Shown: positions 36,438 to 49,596 of the stretch, in pieces
How positions within the stretch are numbered: position 1 is the first letter of the stretch
How the letters are laid out: each line of letters opens with the position of its first letter
Assembly (NCBI GenBank): GCA_965198825.1
Contig: CBDAQB010000002.1
Location: 431,209-495,208 of the forward strand
Direction of reading: 5' to 3'
Length of the DNA: 64,000 nucleotides
DNA from: Acetobacteraceae bacterium
GTDB taxonomy: Bacteria; Pseudomonadota; Alphaproteobacteria; Acetobacterales; Acetobacteraceae
Program-made: the position numbers and the translations under genes
Notes under the pieces: generated by a model
The model's input: only the letters and a program-made list of their open reading frames with translations
Databases searched by the model: none
Told to the model about the DNA's origin: nothing

Positions 36438-39023
36438 TTGAAGCAGAATAACGCGATTTCTTCGGTAGTGGCTTTTTGCGTCTTGCGCCCACGGGCGGTC
36501 GTTCTGGCGTTCGTGCTGATGGGCCTCGCCTGCGCCGGGTATGCGGCAGTCGGCCTGAAAATGACGACCGACTTGCGGCTGCTGTTCAGCCCAAGGCTGG
36601 CTTGGGTTCAGCGCGATGCCGCGGACCGTGCTGCATTTCCGCAGTTCCAGGATCTGATCGTGGCGGTCGTCGATGCGCGTATCCCGGAAGAGGCGGAGGC
36701 GACGGCGGCTGGCCTGGCGGACAAGCTGGCCTTGGACCACCAGCATTTCCTCAGCGTCGCCCGTCCTGACGCCTCGCCCTACCTGCAGGAGGAGGGGCTG
36801 CTCTTCCTGCCGACAGCCACGTTGTCGGATCTGCTCGACCGAACGGTGGATGCCGAGCCGTTCCTGGGGCAGTTGGCGGCCGATCCCAGTGCGCGGGGTT
36901 TGTTCGGTGCGCTTGGCCTGATCGGGGTGGGCGTGACGCGCGGGCAGGCGAACCTCGAGAGTTTCGCCCCGGCGCTTCGGGCCTTCCACGCAACGTTATC
37001 GGAAGCGGTACAGGGGAATGCAAAGCCGCTCTCCTGGGAGAGCCTGCTGGCGGGAGCGGCCGCCAAGCTCGCCGGACCCGACCGCATCGTCCTGCTCAAG
37101 CCGCGGCAGGATTATGGCGCGTTTCAGCCGGGAGCACAGGCGACCGCCGCCTTGCGTGCCGCGGCCGGCTCGCTGGAGTTCGTGAAGTCCGGCGATGCGC
37201 ATGTGTCGCTGACAGGAACGGTGCCGCTGGCGGACGAGGAGTTCTCCTCAGCCGCCAAGGGCGCGTTCCTCGGGCTGTTCGTGACCTTCGCTCTCATCGT
37301 GCTGTGGCTCTACCTGGCGCTGGGGAGCTGGCGTTTGATCCTGCCTGTGGCTGCGACCTTGCTGCTGGGGCTTGCGCTGACGACGGGTTTCGCCGCCGTG
37401 TCGGTAGGGACGCTGAACCTGATATCGGTCGCCTTCGCGATCCTGTTCGTGGGCATCGCGGTGGATTTCGCCATCCAATTCGCCGTGCGCTTCCGCGATC
37501 TGCGGCGCGGCGCGGCGACGATCGAGGCGGCGCTGGCGCTAACAGGAGGGCGGGTCGGCAGGCAGGTTCTCGTCGCCAGTGCCGCGACGGCCTCGGGATT
37601 TCTGGCCTTCGTGCCGACCGACTTCCGCGGCATGGCGGAGTTGGGGCAGATCGCCGGCGGCGGCATGCTCATCGCCTTCGCCTGCACGTTGACCTTCCTG
37701 CCCGCCATGCTGACCTTGTGCCGGCCGAAGGAAGATGCCGAGGAGATCGGGTTTGGCTGGGCGGCGCCGGCGGACCGGGTCATGGCACGGCTGCGTTGGC
37801 CGGTTCTTATGGCGGCAGGCGGGCTCTTCGTGGCTGGCGTGCTCCTCGCACCTTCGCTCGCGTTCGACAGCAACACGCTGCACACCAAGAGGCAGGACAG
37901 CGAAGCGGTGCAGACGCTGATGCGCCTGTTGCGCAATCCGGTGACCAACCCCTTCACCATCGACGTTCTGCGGCCCAGCCCGGCGGCGGCCTTGGCGCTC
38001 GCCGCGCCGATGTCCCGCCTCGTCCTGGTCGATCACGTGGTAACGGTCGATAGCTTCGTGCCAGCCGATCAAGGCGCGAAGCTGGCTATCATCAAGGATG
38101 CGGCGGGGCTGCTGCAGCCTGCACTCTCGCCGGCCCCGGCCTTGCCGGCCTCAACGGCGGACGTCCGCGCGGCGCTCACATCCTGCCTGGCAAAACTGCA
38201 GCCTGCGCTGAGCCGGCTTCCACCGGGCAATCCGCTTGGCAATATCGTGAAGGATATGCAGGCGCTTCAGGCATCGTCGGACGCGACGCTCGGCGCGGCG
38301 GCCGCGGCACTGGTGCGGTTCCTGACCCCTGAACTGGATCGCCTGCGTCTGGCTCTGGGTGCCGGTGCGGTAGGCGTCGCCGACGTACCCGCCGACATCA
38401 GGCGCGATTACGTATTGCCGGACGGGCGTGCGCGCATCGTGGTGGTGCCGAAAACCACGGTGAGCGACGGGCGCATACTTGACCGGTTCGTCGAACAGGC
38501 CGTGGCTGTAGCGCCGGATGCTTCAGGGCCGGCAATCACCATCGTTTCCACGGCACGGACAATCATCCGCGCTTTCGCCATCGCGGCATCGCTTTCCGTG
38601 ATTGCCATAGGATGCATTCTCTTCATCGCGCTTAGGAGCGTGCGCGACGTGATGCTGGTGCTGGCGCCGTTGTTCCTGTCGGCCGCGCTCACCGTAGTGG
38701 TGATGCGGCTGACAGGGATCGTGCTGAACTATGCCAACATCATCGCCTTGCCGTTGCTTCTCGGCGTAGGCGTGTCTTTCAGCATTTACTTCGTGATGAA
38801 TTTTCGCCTGGGCCAGGCACCACGGCTGACATCCGCCACCAGCCGCGCCACCGTGCTGTCCGCCCTGACGACAGGCACCGCGTTCGCGTCGCTGGCGGTG
38901 TCCGCGCATCCGGGCAGCGCTACCATGGGAACATTGCTTCTCATCGGCCTTGGAAACACCCTGCTGGCAACGCTGGTGTTCCTGCCGGCACTGCTTGGGT
39001 TGCTACGCGGAGCTGCCCGCTAG
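36438..39023 (+). CDS. MMPL/RND lipid transporter, HpnN-like (hopanoid-associated)
   Basis: 861 aa, two TM bundles; LNLISVAFAILFVGIAVDFAIQF, PLLLGVGVSFSIYFV, SAHPG...MG. Confidence 0.8.
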   Translation: MKQNNAISSVVAFCVLRPRAVVLAFVLMGLACAGYAAVGLKMTTDLRLLFSPRLAWVQRDAADRAAFPQFQDLIVAVVDARIPEEAEATAAGLADKLALDHQHFLSVARPDASPYLQEEGLLFLPTATLSDLLDRTVDAEPFLGQLAADPSARGLFGALGLIGVGVTRGQANLESFAPALRAFHATLSEAVQGNAKPLSWESLLAGAAAKLAGPDRIVLLKPRQDYGAFQPGAQATAALRAAAGSLEFVKSGDAHVSLTGTVPLADEEFSSAAKGAFLGLFVTFALIVLWLYLALGSWRLILPVAATLLLGLALTTGFAAVSVGTLNLISVAFAILFVGIAVDFAIQFAVRFRDLRRGAATIEAALALTGGRVGRQVLVASAATASGFLAFVPTDFRGMAELGQIAGGGMLIAFACTLTFLPAMLTLCRPKEDAEEIGFGWAAPADRVMARLRWPVLMAAGGLFVAGVLLAPSLAFDSNTLHTKRQDSEAVQTLMRLLRNPVTNPFTIDVLRPSPAAALALAAPMSRLVLVDHVVTVDSFVPADQGAKLAIIKDAAGLLQPALSPAPALPASTADVRAALTSCLAKLQPALSRLPPGNPLGNIVKDMQALQASSDATLGAAAAALVRFLTPELDRLRLALGAGAVGVADVPADIRRDYVLPDGRARIVVVPKTTVSDGRILDRFVEQAVAVAPDASGPAITIVSTARTIIRAFAIAASLSVIAIGCILFIALRSVRDVMLVLAPLFLSAALTVVVMRLTGIVLNYANIIALPLLLGVGVSFSIYFVMNFRLGQAPRLTSATSRATVLSALTTGTAFASLAVSAHPGSATMGTLLLIGLGNTLLATLVFLPALLGLLRGAAR

Positions 39024-39823
39024 CGCTTGACCAGCATCGCTTGCGATGTGGCCAGCTCAAGCGCGAACTCGGATTTATCTTCAAGGTATTCGTCGAAAGC
39101 TTCGCGCACGCCGTCGAGATACGAATAATCGTGGCTGAGGATGACGCCGCCCGGGACCATGCGCGGGTAGAAGAAGTCGAGGCACGCCAATGTACTCGAT
39201 TTCAGATCGACATCGAGATGGACGAACGAGAACCTCTTATCGGAGACGGGATGCGCCGTTGCCGGAAAAAGACCTTGGTAAAAATGGATGTTGCGTTCGC
39301 TGGAAAGGAATTTCTGCACCGACCCTAGCGAAGCCGCGTAGTGTCCCGCACTCATTCGATCGGTTTCGGTGGCGTTCGGCGATGGCAGGCCTTCGAAAGT
39401 GTCGAACAGATGCAGCGGCTTGGCACCGCTTGCGACGCTGATGATCCTGGCGGAGCAGCCCTGGTAAACGCCGACCTCTGCCATTTCTCCATCGATACGG
39501 CTTTGCGCACGGGCCAGCGAGTAAACGGTAAATGCCTCATTGCCGCTCAGCAGAGATTCCCGGCCACGCCTGGCGCTTTTCAATTGCGCCATATGGCCTG
39601 GCTGCTTATGGCCGGCGAGCAGGGCCAACTCGAGCCGTGCCATGAGGCCTATCGTCATGGCGCGAACCGGGCGGCTGGCAGCGATGAGGCGATGTACGCG
39701 GGCACTGTTGAAGCGCCGCCGGATACGGAGGCCCTTCAGTGCCGGAGACATGACAGCAGCCGGTTCGCTCACGATGTCGGAGATAGGCTTGTTCCTTCGG
39801 TGCCTGTCGCCCGTGGCGACCAA
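39020..39823 (-). CDS. TylF/MycF-family O-methyltransferase
   Basis: GEMAEVGVYQG, LFDTFEGLP, FSFVHLDVDL, GGVILSHDY; start uncertain. Confidence 0.85.
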   Translation of the reverse strand: MVATGDRHRRNKPISDIVSEPAAVMSPALKGLRIRRRFNSARVHRLIAASRPVRAMTIGLMARLELALLAGHKQPGHMAQLKSARRGRESLLSGNEAFTVYSLARAQSRIDGEMAEVGVYQGCSARIISVASGAKPLHLFDTFEGLPSPNATETDRMSAGHYAASLGSVQKFLSSERNIHFYQGLFPATAHPVSDKRFSFVHLDVDLKSSTLACLDFFYPRMVPGGVILSHDYSYLDGVREAFDEYLEDKSEFALELATSQAMLVKR

Positions 39824-40015
39824 GCTCGCTCCGGCTGCGGATTTGATGCGCTAACGCACCCCTCCTGGCAATGTTCCGCAAGCCTTGTTCCGAGCGTGTC
39901 TTCGTGCAAACGAGGTTCACCATAGACTTGCCGGAAGATCGGTCGGATATTTCGGCATATCCGGATATGAAAAATCGGGAGGCCTTACAATCGGCCAGTA
40001 AATGGGGAGAGAGAA

Positions 40016-41194
40016 ATGCCGCGATCAGCCGATTTCGATGTTGTCGTTTACGGAGCAACCGGTTTTACCGGCCGGCTGGTCGCCGAGCATTTAGCGCAGC
40101 ATGGCGGAGACCGTCTGGTGTGGGCCATGGCGGGGCGTAGTGCTGCGAAACTGGCGGCCGTGCGTGATGAGATCGGCGCACCGGCAGACACGCCGTTGAT
40201 CGTGGCGGACGCAGATGATGCTGCCTCGCTGGATGCAATGGTGGCGCGCGCGAAGATCGTCATCACCACGGTCGGCCCGTATCAGCTCTATGGCGAGCCC
40301 CTCGTGGCGGCGTGCGTACGCGCCGGCACCGACTATCTCGATCTCTGCGGCGAGCCGAACTGGATGCATCGGATGATCGGCGCCTATGACGCCGCGGCGC
40401 GTGCAAGCGGGGCGCGCATCCTGTTCTCGTGCGGGTTCGATTCTATCCCGTTCGAGCTTGGCGTTTTCTTTCTGCAGGAGACTGCGAGGGACCGGTTGGG
40501 CGCGCCTGTGCCGCGTGCCATGGGACGCGTGCGCAAGATGCAGGGAAGTTTCTCCGGCGGAACGGCAGCGAGCCTGAAGGCGACGCTTGCCGCAGCCGCG
40601 GCCGATCCTGCCGTCATGGATGTCCTGCGCGATCCTTTCGCCCTGACGCCAGGGTTTCGGGGACCGGACCAGCCGCACGGCATGGCGCCTGCCTACGACG
40701 AGGCGCTTGGAACCTGGGCCGCCCCCTTCATCATGGCGGCGATCAACACACGCAATGTGCATCGGTCGAACGCCTTGCAGAGGCACGCTTACGGTACGGA
40801 GTTCGTCTATGACGAAATGGTCCTGACCGGCCCCGGGGAGCGCGGCGAGGCGGCTGCGAAGGCGATGGCGGCAGCACCTTCTCCGTTCGGCGAGGATGGC
40901 CCGAAACCAGGCGAGGGGCCCAGCAAGGCGGAACGCGACAATGGTTTCTATGAAGCGCTGTTCGCCGGCGTCGCGCGCGATGGCAAGGTTGTTCGTGTGT
41001 CCGTCAGCGGAGACCGTGATCCGGGCTATGGCTCCACATCGAAGATCATTGCCGAAACGGCAATCTGCCTGTTGCGCGAAGGTGAGCACGTGCCTGGCGG
41101 CATTTGGACGCCAGGCGCTGCCCTGGGCCGAAAACTCATCGAGGCACTGACCAGCTACGCAGGGCTGAACTTCAACGTCGATGACGCTGCCTAA
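40016..41194 (+). CDS. Saccharopine dehydrogenase-like NADP-binding oxidoreductase
   Basis: YGATGFTG, TVGPY..YG, YLDLCGE, CGFDSIP, DPGYGST. Confidence 0.85.
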   Translation: MPRSADFDVVVYGATGFTGRLVAEHLAQHGGDRLVWAMAGRSAAKLAAVRDEIGAPADTPLIVADADDAASLDAMVARAKIVITTVGPYQLYGEPLVAACVRAGTDYLDLCGEPNWMHRMIGAYDAAARASGARILFSCGFDSIPFELGVFFLQETARDRLGAPVPRAMGRVRKMQGSFSGGTAASLKATLAAAAADPAVMDVLRDPFALTPGFRGPDQPHGMAPAYDEALGTWAAPFIMAAINTRNVHRSNALQRHAYGTEFVYDEMVLTGPGERGEAAAKAMAAAPSPFGEDGPKPGEGPSKAERDNGFYEALFAGVARDGKVVRVSVSGDRDPGYGSTSKIIAETAICLLREGEHVPGGIWTPGAALGRKLIEALTSYAGLNFNVDDAA

Positions 41195-41490
41195 AGGAAG
41201 TCAGGCAGGGTCTTCTTGTCGGCGTAGAAGAATTGCACCTCCTGCGGTGCATCGAGCCGCCATGCCTTGGCGTGGAGAAGCGACGATCTGAACCAGCGTA
41301 TATCCAATGAAGCAGGGGTTAGGGATTGCGCGGCATCAAGCGCTGTCTCGGCCTTCACCCGGCGCGGGAGGGATGGAATGCAGGAGGCCTGGGCCCATGC
41401 GTAGGTCATGACTAGAAAATCCGGCACGCATCGCACTCCGTCAATCAGGCGCACTATTGGCAGGGCGCACAGCCGAAACTCCCGTTGGGT

Positions 41491-41775
41491 TTACCGGCTC
41501 TGAGTTTTCGTCGTTTGCTGGCGCGTTTCGGATGCATCGCGGGCGGCCGAGTGCGGCAGCCGATCTGCTGAACCGGGGCTTCGCTCGGCCAGTGCGCGCT
41601 CACGCATGCTGGACAACGCGCCCCGCATTTCTTCTAAGAGTGCCGCCTCGGCCTCCGCGTCATCCGGATGCCCGGTCGCGAGAAGATACGAAAGCCACTC
41701 GTTCTTTGCAGCAATCTTCGCTTCCTGCTCCAGGATCAGGCTCTGGAGGTCGGCGCCATGGCGACTTTTTCCCAC
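41491..41775 (-). CDS. Small hypothetical helical protein
   Basis: 94 aa amphipathic-helix-like; purine-rich GAGAGGG upstream; no family recognised. Confidence 0.35.
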   Translation of the reverse strand: MGKSRHGADLQSLILEQEAKIAAKNEWLSYLLATGHPDDAEAEAALLEEMRGALSSMRERALAERSPGSADRLPHSAARDASETRQQTTKTQSR

Positions 41776-41963
41776 GTTGTTGAGTGCCCTCTCTCATGTC
41801 ACGCCGGTATCCCGGGGAAGACGTTTATCGTCGTGAGAACCCCATGCGGATGCATGCCGGCGGTAGGCTCCCGGTATCGTGACCAAGGGCACGACTTCCT
41901 GGTGTGCGCGGATGACGCTGCCGGCGGGGTTAGGGCCGCTTGCGGGAGGGGCGCAATGACGCC

Positions 41964-43190
41964 ATGCACAAGGCGATGCCGCCAGCGAAGATACGCCTGA
42001 TCCGCCACCCGGGCGTGCTGCCCATGATCGGCGGCCGAAGCCTTTCCTCGCTGGCCTCGCAAATGCAGGCCGTCGTGGTCGGCTGGCAGATCTATGCGCT
42101 GACAGGAAGCGCCTTCTCGCTCGGCCTGGTCGGGCTCGCGCAATTCCTGCCGGTCGTGGTGCTCGGTTTCGTTGCAGGACACGTCGTCGACCGCTCGGAC
42201 AGGCGGCGCATCGCGGGCACCTGCCAGATCATCGCCTGTCTCGCCGCGCTCGCACTGGCGGCCGCCTCGTTCGCCCACATGCTGACACCGTCGATGATCT
42301 ACGGCCTGGTGGTTGTCGTCGGCGCGGTGCGCGCCTTCGAGGCGCCAAGCCTGCAGGCGCTGCTGCCAGCCCTCGTGCCGGCCGAGGCGTTTCCGCAAGC
42401 GGCCGCGCTCTCTTCGTCATTGTTCCAGACAGCAACGATCGTAGGTCCCTCGCTAGGCGGCCTGCTCTACGGCCTCGGCCCCGACGTCGCCTACGCCACC
42501 TGTGCTGCAACCTTCCTTCTTGCCGCACTCTCCACACTCACGGTGCCGCCGATCCGCCGCGCCGCCGCCCTGGAGCCGCCAACCCTCGCCTCGGTGTTCG
42601 GCGGACTGACCTTCATTCGCCAGCGGCCGGAAATCCTCGGCGCCATCTCGCTCGACCTGTTCGCCGTGCTGCTGGGAGGTGCGACCGCACTCCTCCCGGT
42701 CTATGCACGCGACATCCTCAAGGCCGGACCGCTCGGCCTCGGCCTGCTGCGCGCAGCACCAGGCCTCGGCGCCATCGGCGTGTCGCTCTGGCTCGCCCGG
42801 CGCCCCCTGCGCGGCAAACTCGGCATGCGCATGTTCGCGGCGGTCTTCGTGTTCGGCCTCGCCACCATCGCATTCGGCTTCTCGACCTACCTGCCGCTCT
42901 CCGTGGCAGCCCTCGCGGTCCTCGGCGGCGCAGACGTCATCAGCGTCGTCATCCGGTCCACCCTCGTGCAAATGCGCACGCCGGACGCCATGCGCGGCCG
43001 CGTCGCCGCGGTGAACATGCTTTTCATCGGATCATCGAACCAGCTTGGAGAATTCGAAAGTGGAACGCTGGCGGGCTTCGTCGGCGCGGTGCCTGCCGTG
43101 GTGATCGGCGGTTTGGGTACTTTGGCCGTTGCCTGGATCTGGATGGCGCTCTTCCCGCAGCTTCGCCGGCTGGATCGGGTGGAGGTTTAA
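41964..43190 (+). CDS. MFS transporter
   Basis: ~12 TM; GHVVDRSDRR motif A; TPDAMRGRV. Confidence 0.88.
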   Translation: MHKAMPPAKIRLIRHPGVLPMIGGRSLSSLASQMQAVVVGWQIYALTGSAFSLGLVGLAQFLPVVVLGFVAGHVVDRSDRRRIAGTCQIIACLAALALAAASFAHMLTPSMIYGLVVVVGAVRAFEAPSLQALLPALVPAEAFPQAAALSSSLFQTATIVGPSLGGLLYGLGPDVAYATCAATFLLAALSTLTVPPIRRAAALEPPTLASVFGGLTFIRQRPEILGAISLDLFAVLLGGATALLPVYARDILKAGPLGLGLLRAAPGLGAIGVSLWLARRPLRGKLGMRMFAAVFVFGLATIAFGFSTYLPLSVAALAVLGGADVISVVIRSTLVQMRTPDAMRGRVAAVNMLFIGSSNQLGEFESGTLAGFVGAVPAVVIGGLGTLAVAWIWMALFPQLRRLDRVEV

Positions 43191-43278: not shown

Positions 43279-43707
43279 TCAGGCTGCGCCTGTTGGTAGT
43301 GGCCCCTGCGCAGAGAGTATTGCCCATTCGTTGTCCGTGAAGATCCGGCTGCGTGTTAGGAAACGAACTCCCTCTGGAGATTCCAGGGAAAAACCCGAGC
43401 CTCGGCCTGGGACTACGTCGATGGTGAGCTGCGTGTGAGCCCAATATTCGAATTGAGCTGCGCCCATGTAGAAGGGCGCGCCGGCGATGGTTCCCAGGAG
43501 AACATCCTGTGCGCCTACGCGGAAATCACCGAGCGGGTAGCACATAGGGGCGCTGCCGTCGCAGCATCCGCCCGATTGATGGAACAATAAGTCGCCGTGA
43601 ATGGCGCGAAGCTTCTCCACGATTTTTTCAGCAGCAGGCGTAATCAAGACCCGCGCCGCAGGCATTTCGACAGTGGCGGTGTCAGTGTCGTGATCCATGA
43701 TGCCCAT
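43279..43707 (-). CDS. DUF779 family protein (typically linked to aldehyde dehydrogenase genes)
   Basis: FHQSGGCCDGSAPMCY, QFEYWAHTQLTIDVVPGRGSGFSLE. Confidence 0.9.
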   Translation of the reverse strand: MGIMDHDTDTATVEMPAARVLITPAAEKIVEKLRAIHGDLLFHQSGGCCDGSAPMCYPLGDFRVGAQDVLLGTIAGAPFYMGAAQFEYWAHTQLTIDVVPGRGSGFSLESPEGVRFLTRSRIFTDNEWAILSAQGPLPTGAA

Positions 43708-43787: not shown

Positions 43788-44741
43788 TTACTCAGCGCGC
43801 CTCAAACCGAGCCGGCGCAATTTACGATGTAGGGTAGCGCGGCTCACACCCAAGACGCGCGCCGCCTGCGACACATTGCCGTCCGCGCGGGCGAGGGCGC
43901 GTTGGAGGACTCCGCGTTCGGCGGATTCGAGGTTTTCAATGCCGTCGTCAGCCGGGCAGAGGATGGTGTCTGCCGGCAGGGATTTGGCGAGTTGCGCGTC
44001 GGTAATGCCACAGGCGATACGGGCGGCGCGTGTTGCACCGACGATGAGGTCGTCTTCGCTGATGGCGAGCAGGGCGCCTGCGCCCCAGTCCGTATCGGGT
44101 GCGAGGACGATGCGGGCGCGCGGGAAGGCGCCGCGGAAGTTGCGCGCCTCGATGCGCCGTGCGGCGTCCACGACGGCCGATGCGATCAGGCCGATGAAAT
44201 CCTGGGTGAGGTCGGCGCGGCAGGATGAGACGTCGATGGCCGCCGCGAGGCGTCCCTGGTGGTCGTAGATGGGGGCTACGGTGCAGCTGAGGCCAGTGTT
44301 CCGGGCGTGGAAATGCTGGTCGCGGTGGATGGTGAGCGCGCGTTCCTCGGCGATGCAGGTGCCGATTCCGTTGGTGCCTTCGGCTTCCTCGCTCCAGACG
44401 GTTCCTGTCCAGAGGCCCCAGCGAAAGAAGGTTTTGTCATCGGCGCAGACGCCGCGCCGGTCCACGGGAACGCCGTGGCGGTCGGTGAAGAGCACGCAGC
44501 AGCCGGTATCGCCGACCGCCTGGAAGAGGCGGTCGAGCGTGCCTGTCGCGGCGGAGAGGAGCGGTTCGACATGTTCACGGGCTTCGCGCAGTTCGCGGTC
44601 AGTGAGCACGCGCGGGGGGCGGGTATCGTGCGGATCGAGGCCGTAACGGGTGAGCGAACGGGTCCAGGAGGCGAAGATAGCAGAGCGCCCGGACGCGGAG
44701 GGGTCGCGTGCTGCGGCAATGATGCGATCGGCGTGGTTCAC
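43788..44741 (-). CDS. GAF + Fis-type HTH regulator (AcoR-like, no AAA+ domain)
   Basis: SWTRS, GTNGIGTCI, LSCTVAPIYD GAF motifs; GNVSQAARVLGVSRATLHRKL; GGGAGG 9 nt upstream of GTG. Confidence 0.85.
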   Translation of the reverse strand: MNHADRIIAAARDPSASGRSAIFASWTRSLTRYGLDPHDTRPPRVLTDRELREAREHVEPLLSAATGTLDRLFQAVGDTGCCVLFTDRHGVPVDRRGVCADDKTFFRWGLWTGTVWSEEAEGTNGIGTCIAEERALTIHRDQHFHARNTGLSCTVAPIYDHQGRLAAAIDVSSCRADLTQDFIGLIASAVVDAARRIEARNFRGAFPRARIVLAPDTDWGAGALLAISEDDLIVGATRAARIACGITDAQLAKSLPADTILCPADDGIENLESAERGVLQRALARADGNVSQAARVLGVSRATLHRKLRRLGLRRAE

Positions 44742-44885
44742 CTGGACATGCCTCCCGGCATCGTTTCGATTTTAGCCCACTTGGCGTGGAGTCGACCTGC
44801 TTTGCTCTTCGTGTCAATATCCCTCCAGGCCCGGAACACTAGCAAGTAACGGGTTGCCACTATGCTGCGACGCACAATAATGTGC

Positions 44886-45081: not shown

Positions 45082-46824
45082 ATGACTGACCGTGTTCCCG
45101 CCCGTTTCGGCTTGCGAAGCGCCGGCTTGCGACTTCGGCAGGTGCTGGCTCTGACCTGCGCCGTAGCGTTGCCGCTGTCGCAGGCTTCGGCTGGTGCGAC
45201 CCTGAAATATTCGCCTGTCACGGACGCGCGCCTTGCTGCTGCCGCGAACGACGACGGCTGGCTGATGTATCGCCATGATTACGGCAGCACCGGCTATTCG
45301 AAGCTGAAGCTGATCAACGAGACAAACGTCGGCAAGCTCAGGCAGATCTGGGACTACAAGAGCGACTTCGAGCAGGGTCATGAGTCGGCGCCGATCGTCA
45401 ACGGCGACACGATGTTCATCACCACGCCGAAGGACGAGGTGCATGCGTTCCAGGCGAGCACGGGCAAGGCGCTGTGGACCTACAAGCATGACCTCTCGAG
45501 CGTCGGCCTGAAGACGGTTTGCTGCGACGTGGTGAACCGCGGCGTGGCGGTCTATGGCGACAACGTCTATCTCGCGACGCTCGACAACTATGTCGTGGCG
45601 CTCGATGGCCAGACCGGCAACGTGGTGTGGAAGAAGCAGCTCGCTCCGGCCGATCAGGGTGCTGCGATGACGCTGGCGCCGCTCGTCGTGAAGGGCAAGG
45701 TCATCGTCGGCCTGTCCGGCGGCGAATATGGCGCACGTGGCGCGGTCACCGCGCTCGATGCGAAAACCGGTGATCAAGTCTGGAAGAAATTCACCATCCC
45801 GGCGCCTGGCGAGCCTGGCGGCGATACCTGGCCGAAGGGCGCCTACAAGACCGGCGGCGGCGGCGCCTGGCTGACTGGCACCTACGATGCGGCGACCGAC
45901 ACGCTGTTCTGGGGCGTCGGCAATCCTGGCCCGTGGCTGGCAACACTTCGTCCCGGCAACAACCTCTACACCGACAGCGTCATTGCGATGAACCCGGGCA
46001 CCGGCGACATCAAGTGGAGCTATCAGTACACGCCGCACGACACCTGGGACTACGACGGCACCAACGAGACGGTGCTGACCGACATCAACTACGAGGGCAC
46101 GCCGCACAAGGCGCTGGTCTCGGCGAGCCGGAATGGCTGGTTCTACGCCATCGACCGGGTCAGCGGTAAGCTGATCTATGCCGAGAAGTTCGCGACCGCG
46201 ACGTCGGTCAAGGGCGTCGAGAACGGCCAGATGGTGACGGACGATGCGCTGCGTCCTGATGTGGGCAAGGAAGTGTTCACCTGCCCGAGCTTCCTGGGCG
46301 GCAAGAACTGGTGGCCGATCGCCGTCGATCCGCAGACCCATTTCGCCTACGTGCCGACGATGCATACCTGCATGAAGATCAAGGGCGGCGCGGTGAGCTA
46401 CCACGCCGGCCTGCCGTTCCTCGGCGAGAGCTTCAACGTCATGCGTGATCCGGCCTTCCCGGATGCGTGGGGCGCCGTGCAGGCGATCGATCTGAACACC
46501 GGCAAGCAGGCGTGGAACTTCCCCTCCAAGCTGCCCTGGAACGACGGCATGCTGGCAACTGCCGGCGGGCTGGTTTTCTCAGGCAGCGCTGACGGCTACC
46601 TGTATGGCTTCGACGCCAAGACGGGTGCCGTGAAGTGGAAGAGCCCGCAGATGAGCTCAGGCATCATCGGCGTGCCAAGCACCTGGAAGGTCGGCGGCAA
46701 GCAGTATGTCGGCCTGTGGGCCGGCTGGGGCGGCGCGACACCGATCTGGGGCGGCGACATGGCCAAGGATCCGGCCGTGAAATCCATTCCGCTCGGTGGC
46801 CACTTCTATGTGTTCGGGCTGTAG
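45082..46824 (+). CDS. Type I PQQ-dependent alcohol dehydrogenase, ExaF/PedH-like (lanthanide-type motif)
   Basis: Signal peptide; CCDVVNRG vicinal Cys; GGEYG, GNPGPW, WDYDG; PSFLGGKNW; no heme motif. Confidence 0.9.
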   Translation: MTDRVPARFGLRSAGLRLRQVLALTCAVALPLSQASAGATLKYSPVTDARLAAAANDDGWLMYRHDYGSTGYSKLKLINETNVGKLRQIWDYKSDFEQGHESAPIVNGDTMFITTPKDEVHAFQASTGKALWTYKHDLSSVGLKTVCCDVVNRGVAVYGDNVYLATLDNYVVALDGQTGNVVWKKQLAPADQGAAMTLAPLVVKGKVIVGLSGGEYGARGAVTALDAKTGDQVWKKFTIPAPGEPGGDTWPKGAYKTGGGGAWLTGTYDAATDTLFWGVGNPGPWLATLRPGNNLYTDSVIAMNPGTGDIKWSYQYTPHDTWDYDGTNETVLTDINYEGTPHKALVSASRNGWFYAIDRVSGKLIYAEKFATATSVKGVENGQMVTDDALRPDVGKEVFTCPSFLGGKNWWPIAVDPQTHFAYVPTMHTCMKIKGGAVSYHAGLPFLGESFNVMRDPAFPDAWGAVQAIDLNTGKQAWNFPSKLPWNDGMLATAGGLVFSGSADGYLYGFDAKTGAVKWKSPQMSSGIIGVPSTWKVGGKQYVGLWAGWGGATPIWGGDMAKDPAVKSIPLGGHFYVFGL

Positions 46825-46833
46825 GGACTGGTA

Positions 46834-48021
46834 TTGATGAAGACCAACTCCACCAGGCAGGCGCTTCTGGCGTCCTGCTTGGTGGCCGGAGGTGTCGTGC
46901 TCGCGCACGGCACCGCTTCGGCCGCCACCATGCCGGGCAACCTCTCGGTGTGCATCGACACGGCTAGCGCTTCGGCCGCGCGTGACCAGAAGGTTGCAGA
47001 GGCGGTGGCGCACCGTGAAAATGTTCAGCTTGCCGTGGAGCATTTCACCAGCAGCGACGATGACGACGGAGTTTCGCCAAAGGAATTCCGCAAGCTCATC
47101 GGCAGCAAATGCAAGCTGGTGCTCGGCTTTCCGGTCGATGCCACAAAGGGATCGTCGCCCGGGCTGCCGCCTGACCTGATGACCACGACGGCCTATGGTG
47201 AGACCGGTTTCGTGTTCGTGGTGCCGCAGGGATCGACGGCCAAGCGGCTCGCCGACCTTCCCGACAACACCGACGTGGCGGTGACCTACGAGACGGCGCC
47301 GAACACGTATTTTCTGGACCACAAGAATGTTTCGCCGGACGTGCATACGTCCGACAAGGAGACGCTGGAGACGGTCGCCTCAGGCAAGGTGAAGGCCGCC
47401 ATGGTCTGGGGCCCAACTCTGCAGGCCTACCTGAAATCGACCCCGGACGCGAAGCTCAGCGCCTATCCGCTGGATGAGCCCCACGCGCGCTACCAGGTGG
47501 TGGCCCTCTATGGCGAGGACGGCACGGCAGACGCGGCGCGCTTCCAGAAGGCTGTCGCCGATCTCGGTGGCTCCAGCGCGCTCGACAAGACGATCGCCTC
47601 GGACGGCGAGGGCGGCGGCACCACGACTGTGCAGCCGCCGGCGCCCTCTTCCGCCCCCGGGCCGCACGCCGACGCCGGCGGCTTGCCCGCGCTCTATACG
47701 GAGGCGCAGGCCAAGCAAGGCGCACAAAAGTTCTCCGACAATTGCGAGCAGTGCCATGGCGCGCATCTCGAAGGCCGCGCAGGGCCGGCGCTCAAGGGGC
47801 CGAACTTTGCCTCCAAGGCCTCAAACTTCACGGTTAGCGACATCTTCACGATTGTCTCACAGAACATGCCTGCTTCCAATCCAGGCAGCCTGGAGCACGA
47901 TGATTACGTGCAGATCATGGCTTTCCTCTTGCAGCAGAACGGCTACCCCGCGGGTTCGACTGCCTTGACGTTCGACGGTGCGGGCGCTTCCAAGGTCGCT
48001 TTGGTCTACCAGCCTAAATAG
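46834..48021 (+). CDS. Fusion of MxaJ/XoxJ-like periplasmic binding protein and C-terminal cytochrome c
   Basis: LSVCID, CKLVLGFP, LMTTTAYGETGFVFV, AMVWGP; Pro/Gly linker; CEQCH and NMP ligands. Confidence 0.8.
   Translation: MMKTNSTRQALLASCLVAGGVVLAHGTASAATMPGNLSVCIDTASASAARDQKVAEAVAHRENVQLAVEHFTSSDDDDGVSPKEFRKLIGSKCKLVLGFPVDATKGSSPGLPPDLMTTTAYGETGFVFVVPQGSTAKRLADLPDNTDVAVTYETAPNTYFLDHKNVSPDVHTSDKETLETVASGKVKAAMVWGPTLQAYLKSTPDAKLSAYPLDEPHARYQVVALYGEDGTADAARFQKAVADLGGSSALDKTIASDGEGGGTTTVQPPAPSSAPGPHADAGGLPALYTEAQAKQGAQKFSDNCEQCHGAHLEGRAGPALKGPNFASKASNFTVSDIFTIVSQNMPASNPGSLEHDDYVQIMAFLLQQNGYPAGSTALTFDGAGASKVALVYQPK

Positions 48022-48075: not shown

Positions 48076-49596
<1,521 letters not shown>

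Follow-up and report, generated by a model that had tools for sequence, protein, structure and literature searches.

A gene at positions 45082-46824 of a 64,000-nucleotide stretch of DNA (hereafter the window) from an Acetobacteraceae bacterium (contig CBDAQB010000002.1 of assembly GCA_965198825.1) encodes a pyrroloquinoline quinone (PQQ)-dependent alcohol dehydrogenase (ADH), and it raises the question of which metal, which alcohol and which electron acceptor this enzyme uses. We propose, with a probability of about 0.65, that the ADH is an exported PQQ-ADH of type 7 that binds a lanthanide and oxidizes ethanol or other short alcohols through a fused cytochrome c, together with the aldehyde dehydrogenase ExaC. 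The proposal builds on what we observe of the family, fold, active-site residues, clade and conserved gene partners of the protein; from these we infer the metal, the substrate and the route of the electrons.

Fold and metal site of the dehydrogenase

The open reading frame of 580 codons begins with ATG, about 12 nucleotides downstream of a GGAGG, and its product matches TIGR03075, the model for methanol/ethanol-family PQQ dehydrogenases, with 576 bits (cut-off 480) and Pfam PF01011 with 249 bits. An AlphaFold2 model computed from an alignment of 35 clade sequences (predicted local distance difference test, pLDDT, 83; predicted template-modeling score, pTM, 0.85) has the eight-bladed beta-propeller fold. 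It superposes best on PedH (6zcw; template-modeling scores 0.87/0.90, root-mean-square deviation 2.1 Å), and all of its top 30 Foldseek matches are PQQ dehydrogenases. Residues 1-38 are disordered in the model (pLDDT below 50), and the alignment to mature PedH starts only past this probable signal-peptide stretch, the cleavage site of which would lie near the junction of SQASA and GA. At the other end the protein terminates with the propeller: the C-terminal heme c domain is absent and Pfam detects no cytochrome domain, in agreement with an earlier sequence-only reading of the window, which had described the enzyme as heme-less.

That reading had also cited a GGEYG Glu, a GNPGPW Asn, a WDYDG Asp-x-Asp and a vicinal Cys-Cys pair, all of which are in place (VCCDV 146-150, GGEYG 213-217, GNPGPW 280-285, WDYDG 322-326 and, further along, PSFLGGKNW 402-410). 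By alignment to PedH and XoxF, the ADH thus has the family-defining Cys-Cys pair, the catalytic Asp (Asp323) and the Glu and Asn metal ligands, residues that do not vary within its clade. The position of the second Asp of the D-Y-D triplet is of particular importance for the choice of metal. In HMMER alignments, the ADH stretch TPHDTWDYDGTNE pairs gap-free with TPHDGWDFDGVNE of PedH (6zcw), in which the triplet is D-F-D, and with TPWDSWDYDGVNE of SolV XoxF (4mae), in which it is Asp299-Tyr-Asp301. The alignment is likewise gap-free against the calcium-type quinohemoproteins 1kv9 (WDFTA) and 1kb0 (WDYTS), which have Thr at the position of Asp325. Because the calcium-type enzymes carry Thr and PedH and XoxF carry Asp in this column, the second Asp of the ADH occupies the diagnostic position. 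The D-Y-D is accordingly placed by alignment at the metal site, and the opposite outcome that the sequence-only reading had allowed for, a triplet lying elsewhere in the protein, did not materialize. Two sources report that XoxF1 and ExaF require this Asp both to coordinate the lanthanide and to function (bioRxiv 10.1101/2020.02.25.964783; PMC11996626).

Conservation was followed in 255 homologues that share 51-89% identity with the ADH. Each of the 255 keeps the Glu, both Cys residues and the second Asp, and such invariance across this range of identities excludes chance as the origin of the motif.

Assignment to type 7

Among solved relatives, the ADH scores 389 bits against PedH (6zcw), 349 against ExaA, 341 against the quinohemoprotein 1kv9 and 337 against SolV XoxF, values so close that it stands at nearly the same distance from all four. 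Among 1.84 billion cluster representatives searched, that of the ADH's own cluster scored 679 bits at 55% identity, and the runner-up 488 bits at 45%. In the literature, EDT10345 of Paraburkholderia graminis C4D1M is listed as "PQQ ADH type 7" (Alessa et al., 2021, PMC8561711 Table S3, after the tree of Keltjens et al., 2014), and our type labels rest on this reference table. A cluster look-up showed that the type 7 reference sequence in our tree carries the accession EDT10345.1.

In a maximum-likelihood tree of 59 sequences (LG+C20+F+G4), the ADH and EDT10345 fall inside one clade of 18 rows with support of 100/100, and the node that joins the two has 98/93. The sister group of type 7 holds the plasmid-encoded ADH of Methylobacterium aquaticum 22A, and the union of both groups is supported at 100/99. 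A split supported at 95/97 separates the ADH from the PedH/ExaA representative, from XoxF/MxaF and from the AdhA-type enzymes. A topology uniting type 7 with the PedH/ExaA representative is rejected by the approximately unbiased (AU) test (p 0.004), and the ADH is without a loop of about 16 residues that PedH has after residue 240. Based on the tree support, the AU test, the accession match and the missing loop, we assign the ADH, by its sequence, to type 7 and not to the ExaF/PedH orthologues.

The phylogeny called for by the sequence-only reading therefore points away from PedH, with which that reading had associated the enzyme. An ExaF/PedH (type 2b) orthologue would account for PedH being the best solved match by sequence and by fold, and for the likeness of PSFLGGKNW, described earlier as ExaF/PedH-like, to PAFLGAKNW of PedH. 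Yet identity to PedH is only about 38-43%, and ten cluster representatives outscore the PedH/ExaA representative (785 bits to 6zcw), which ranks about twelfth for the ADH. Together with the split, the AU test and the missing loop, these values leave the PSFLGGKNW resemblance a local one and make type 2b membership, which we reject, extremely improbable.

Four further assignments were considered and rejected. Type 6a, to which the M. aquaticum 22A enzyme belongs (PMC7356819), is the sister group and a separate clade. XoxF membership is at odds with an identity of 37% to the XoxF5 of the same genome and with its location on the opposite side of the tree. The ADH is not a type III membrane-bound quinohemoprotein, as it ends after the propeller at 580 residues and has D-Y-D where AdhA types have D-Y-T. 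Finally, the Burkholderiaceae homologues (52-56% identity) are not the "MDH2" of Burkholderiales, since Mdh2 is equated with the calcium-type ExaA/PedE group (PMC6028718).

Partner genes of the dehydrogenase

The gene that starts ten bases 3' of the ADH gene encodes a protein with a signal peptide, a MoxJ/XoxJ-like domain and a class I cytochrome c (Table 1). The cytochrome part (Pfam PF13442, residues 291-365) has its CEQCH heme-binding motif at 47743-47757 and gives further weak matches to cytochrome c550/c551/MoxG; the binding-protein part gives a weak match to TIGR03871 (MoxJ_2; 30 bits, residues 52-216). Almost every member of the clade has the same fusion directly 3' of its ADH gene, across Acetobacteraceae, Rhodanobacter and Paraburkholderia, and the Paraburkholderia protein aligns with that of the window over its full length (31% identity, E 7e-46). 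We regard the fusion protein as the probable dedicated electron acceptor of the ADH. In a minority of clade loci (at least eight), the cytochrome part alone is found directly 3' of the ADH gene.

The next gene encodes an NAD-dependent acetaldehyde dehydrogenase that scores 933.6 bits against the ExaC equivalog model NF050026 (AcaldDHExaC; cut-off 900), and ExaC is linked to the ADH gene, on either side, in most clade loci. On the opposite strand, the divergent regulator is AcoR-like but reduced to GAF and helix-turn-helix (HTH) domains, without the sigma-54 AAA+ module. Orthologues of this regulator (65-77% identity) occur in Acetobacteraceae loci, and the loci of Rhodanobacter (Gammaproteobacteria) and of Paraburkholderia/Burkholderiaceae have full-length sigma-54-type regulators in its place. 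Downstream of the regulator gene lies a gene for a DUF779 protein; DUF779 genes are usually associated with aldehyde dehydrogenase genes.

Table 1. Positions of the dehydrogenase, its predicted functional residues and the neighboring features in the window.
Feature	Positions	Strand	Basis
Type 7 PQQ-dependent alcohol dehydrogenase of 580 residues with a predicted lanthanide-type metal site	45082..46824	+	TIGR03075, PedH match, tree
Probable Sec signal peptide, residues 1 to ~38	45082..45195	+	read from sequence
Vicinal Cys147-Cys148, predicted disulfide ring over PQQ	45520..45525	+	invariant in 255/255 clade proteins
Glu215, predicted metal ligand (GGEYG)	45724..45726	+	aligned to GGEFG of PedH and SolV XoxF; invariant
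Asn281, predicted metal ligand (GNPGPW)	45922..45924	+	aligned to GNPAPW (PedH) and SNPGTW (SolV XoxF); invariant
Asp323-Tyr324-Asp325, predicted catalytic base and additional lanthanide-ligand Asp	46048..46056	+	gap-free alignment to PedH and SolV XoxF
Fusion protein, 395 aa: MoxJ/XoxJ-like periplasmic binding-protein domain, Gly/Pro/Thr linker, class I cytochrome c	46834..48021	+	Pfam, NCBIfam
ExaC, NAD-dependent acetaldehyde dehydrogenase	48076..49596	+	NF050026
Divergent regulator, GAF and Fis-type HTH_8	43788..44741	-	Pfam PF01590, PF02954
DUF779 protein, downstream of regulator	43279..43707	-	Pfam PF05610, 160 bits
Candidate sigma-70-like hexamer pair TTGCCA-16-AATAAT, ~200 nt 5' of the ADH gene	44854..44881	+	motif scan

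Other alcohol dehydrogenases of the genome

The assembly (4.4 Mb, 93.8% complete) contains exactly two PQQ dehydrogenases of the methanol/ethanol family, the type 7 ADH and a XoxF5, and both have the D-Y-D. The XoxF5 scores 896 bits against XoxF1 of M. extorquens (6oc5) and is encoded in a canonical xoxF5-xoxG-xoxJ cluster elsewhere in the genome (2167536-2170718). No calcium-type PQQ-ADH of the AdhA, ExaA/PedE or MxaF types was found in this 93.8%-complete genome. A pqqC scoring above its cut-off lies inside a pqqB-E-like run of open reading frames; with this gene and the xoxF5-xoxG-xoxJ cluster present, both PQQ synthesis and lanthanide-type alcohol oxidation are to be expected in the cell.

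The sequence-only reading had concluded that a soluble rare-earth route of alcohol oxidation operates in an Acetobacteraceae-like organism. Much of this holds: the enzyme is exported by prediction, lacks heme and has the marker Asp, its nearest named relatives are encoded by metagenome-assembled genomes (MAGs) of Acetobacteraceae from lichens, bogs and soils (78-83% identity), and the genome has XoxF5 and pqqC. The dependence on lanthanides itself is a prediction from the motif.

Proposed mechanism and its alternatives

Based on the Cys-Cys ring, the Glu, Asn and Asp ligands and the additional Asp325, we propose that a light lanthanide, not Ca2+, most likely serves as the Lewis acid beside PQQ. 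The probable reaction is the periplasmic oxidation of ethanol to its aldehyde, with other short primary alcohols as likely further substrates. The presumably co-transcribed MoxJ-like/cytochrome c fusion would accept the electrons at its cytochrome c domain and hand them on to the respiratory chain, and the co-encoded ExaC would convert the acetaldehyde to acetate.

Several points weigh against this proposal, and most of them concern the metal. The literature searched yielded no characterized type 7 enzyme, and the supplements of PMC11996626 contain no type 7 entry and no relevant organism names. A complex of XoxF1 and MxaI has been reported with only Ca2+ (PMC6028718), so that the Asp motif predicts lanthanide use and does not prove it, and metal heterogeneity occurs within PQQ-ADH families (PMC11996626). 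The sequence-only reading had recommended a search for lut and lanM genes. A regular expression run over all six-frame open reading frames of the genome found no lanmodulin-like protein with at least two EF-hand loops, and no TonB receptor or obvious lut cluster is seen in the roughly 16 kb on either side of xoxFGJ, where the genes noted were those for a sensor kinase, a binding protein and the ATPase of an ATP-binding cassette system. These points would suit the same enzyme working with Ca2+, or with more than one metal, in spite of its extra Asp and with no requirement for lanthanides, and outside XoxF and type 2b the motif is correlative. We nevertheless judge a calcium or promiscuous enzyme to be quite unlikely: the Asp is invariant in clade proteins from several phyla, which argues for strong selection on the ligand, calcium-type relatives consistently replace this residue, and the genome already relies on XoxF5.

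Two other observations against the proposal concern the electron route and the substrate. The cytochrome domain of the fusion has weak similarity to XoxG or ExaB, and in Gluconacetobacter loci ExaC is absent within 6 kb of the ADH gene, so the assignment to ethanol is not universal for the clade; Nevskia loci likewise have no linked ExaC. It is also possible that the enzyme is of the lanthanide type but acts on something other than ethanol, either as a second methanol/formaldehyde dehydrogenase or on longer, aromatic or diol alcohols from the habitat. PQQ-ADHs are broad, ExaF and PedH acting on several alcohols and aldehydes (PMC11996626), and metagenomes of lichens, mosses and bogs are the source of many relatives. 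We consider this unlikely, given that an ExaC equivalog and a DUF779 gene share the module here and in most clade loci, and that a separate xoxF5-G-J system for methanol is encoded in the genome.

Relation to known systems

The closest comparison is with the type 7 reference EDT10345, which is of equal length and about 53% identical and has the CC, GGEYG, GNPGPW, WDYD and PSFLGGKNW motifs as well as a downstream gene for a binding-protein/cytochrome c fusion. The two loci differ in their regulators, a sigma-54-dependent activator there and the short GAF-HTH protein here. Within type 7, the sub-branch of Acetobacteraceae, Rhodanobacter and Beijerinckia (70-83% identical to the ADH) is separated by a long branch from Burkholderiaceae.

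PedH of Pseudomonas putida KT2440 (6zcw/6zcv) and ExaF of Methylorubrum extorquens AM1 are the lanthanide-dependent ethanol dehydrogenases of type 2b. With them the ADH shares the character of a soluble, periplasmic, heme-less quinoprotein, an identical set of metal ligands with the extra Asp among them, and linked genes for a cytochrome c and for an aldehyde dehydrogenase of the ExaC type. It differs in its clade, in having its cytochrome partner fused to a MoxJ-like domain, and in the absence from this genome of a calcium-type twin (PedE/ExaA).

The XoxF5-XoxG-XoxJ system, of which the same genome holds a copy, resembles the type 7 module in its D-Y-D site and in its J-like binding protein and c-type cytochrome partners, but here the J and cytochrome parts form one polypeptide. 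The J domain of the fusion is 23% identical to XoxJ (E 0.005), and its cytochrome has no real match to XoxG. Moreover, the gene linkage of the ADH is with an acetaldehyde dehydrogenase and not with C1 genes.

AdhA of acetic acid bacteria (PDB 8gy2) belongs to the same superfamily and is distinguished by its C-terminal heme domain and a calcium-type WDYT[SA]. Gluconacetobacter dulcium and Acetobacter nitrogenifigens encode a type 7 ADH beside such long AdhA-type quinohemoproteins, the quinohemoprotein ADHs of Gluconacetobacter and Acetobacter being open frames of 750-950 residues. The contrast with classical acetic acid bacteria drawn by the sequence-only reading is weaker for that reason: both species carry the two kinds of enzyme side by side.

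Distribution and significance

Beyond the MAGs named above, relatives of the ADH are found in Gluconacetobacter species (dulcium, liquefaciens, sacchari, asukensis and others; 71-77% identity), Acetobacter nitrogenifigens and A. sacchari (73-74%), Lichenicoccus roseus (69%), Beijerinckia indica (73%), Rhodanobacter, Dyella, Luteibacter and Pseudoxanthomonas (73-77%) and Nevskia (69%). The Burkholderiaceae proteins are more distant, as are those of Vulcanimicrobiota and Chloroflexota MAGs (52-58%). Orthologues with at least 55% identity occur in 13 of 300 sampled other genomes of the same family, all three same-genus genomes among them, and the distribution of type 7 ADH in its own family is therefore patchy. 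The suggestion of a possibly divergent clade was misleading: type 7 was named in 2014, is populous and is present in soil bacteria and cultivated acetic acid bacteria, and it is not an isolated lineage.

The ADH adds one more, fairly ordinary member to a known, biochemically uncharacterized clade; it is not a new kind of enzyme. As lanthanide-type motifs have already been predicted for 14 of 17 PQQ dehydrogenase families (PMC11996626) and for 15 clades (2026 preprint), the conceptual gain is modest. The useful outcomes are that the enzyme is placed in the correct clade, that its fused partner is conserved, and that acetic acid bacteria which are easy to grow have it. Should the proposal be right, PQQ-ADH type 7, a clade of Proteobacteria associated with acidic soils, bogs, lichens and plants, would receive its first biochemical assignment. 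Some acetic acid bacteria would then oxidize ethanol by a soluble rare-earth route, either in addition to the textbook membrane-bound enzyme or in its place. The prediction is easy and cheap to test in cultivated carriers, among them Gluconacetobacter liquefaciens DSM 5603, Acetobacter nitrogenifigens DSM 23921, Beijerinckia indica, Paraburkholderia graminis and Rhodanobacter. A wider version of the proposal, to which we give slightly less than even odds, is that type 7 as a whole is a distinct and uniformly lanthanide-dependent ethanol system with a XoxJ-like/cytochrome c acceptor, that all periplasmic alcohol oxidation in this organism is rare-earth-dependent, and that cultivated Gluconacetobacter and Acetobacter use the same route.

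Additional observations

The scan for promoters and terminators returned nothing above chance, with one hexamer-pair site against 1.3 expected. Upstream of the module, at 36438-43190 of the window, lie genes for an MMPL-family transporter, a TylF-type O-methyltransferase, a saccharopine-dehydrogenase-like protein and an EntS-like exporter of the major facilitator superfamily, which might form a set for the export of a small molecule, conceivably a metallophore; no evidence ties them to the ADH.

Two MAGs carry sequences at odds with their labels. In one assigned to "Verrucomicrobia", the ADH hardly differs in the tree from that of Nevskia soli, and one assigned to "Methylobacterium" has a Rhodanobacter-like ADH on a 3.6-kb contig; both cases likely reflect mis-binned contigs or recent transfer. 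In one long-read MAG the orthologous ADH is broken into two overlapping frames, probably through a frameshift or an assembly error. In Paraburkholderia largidicola, a stand-alone copy of pqqD and an open reading frame of 63 codons precede the type 7 ADH gene, an arrangement that hints at a local PQQ-related accessory pair.

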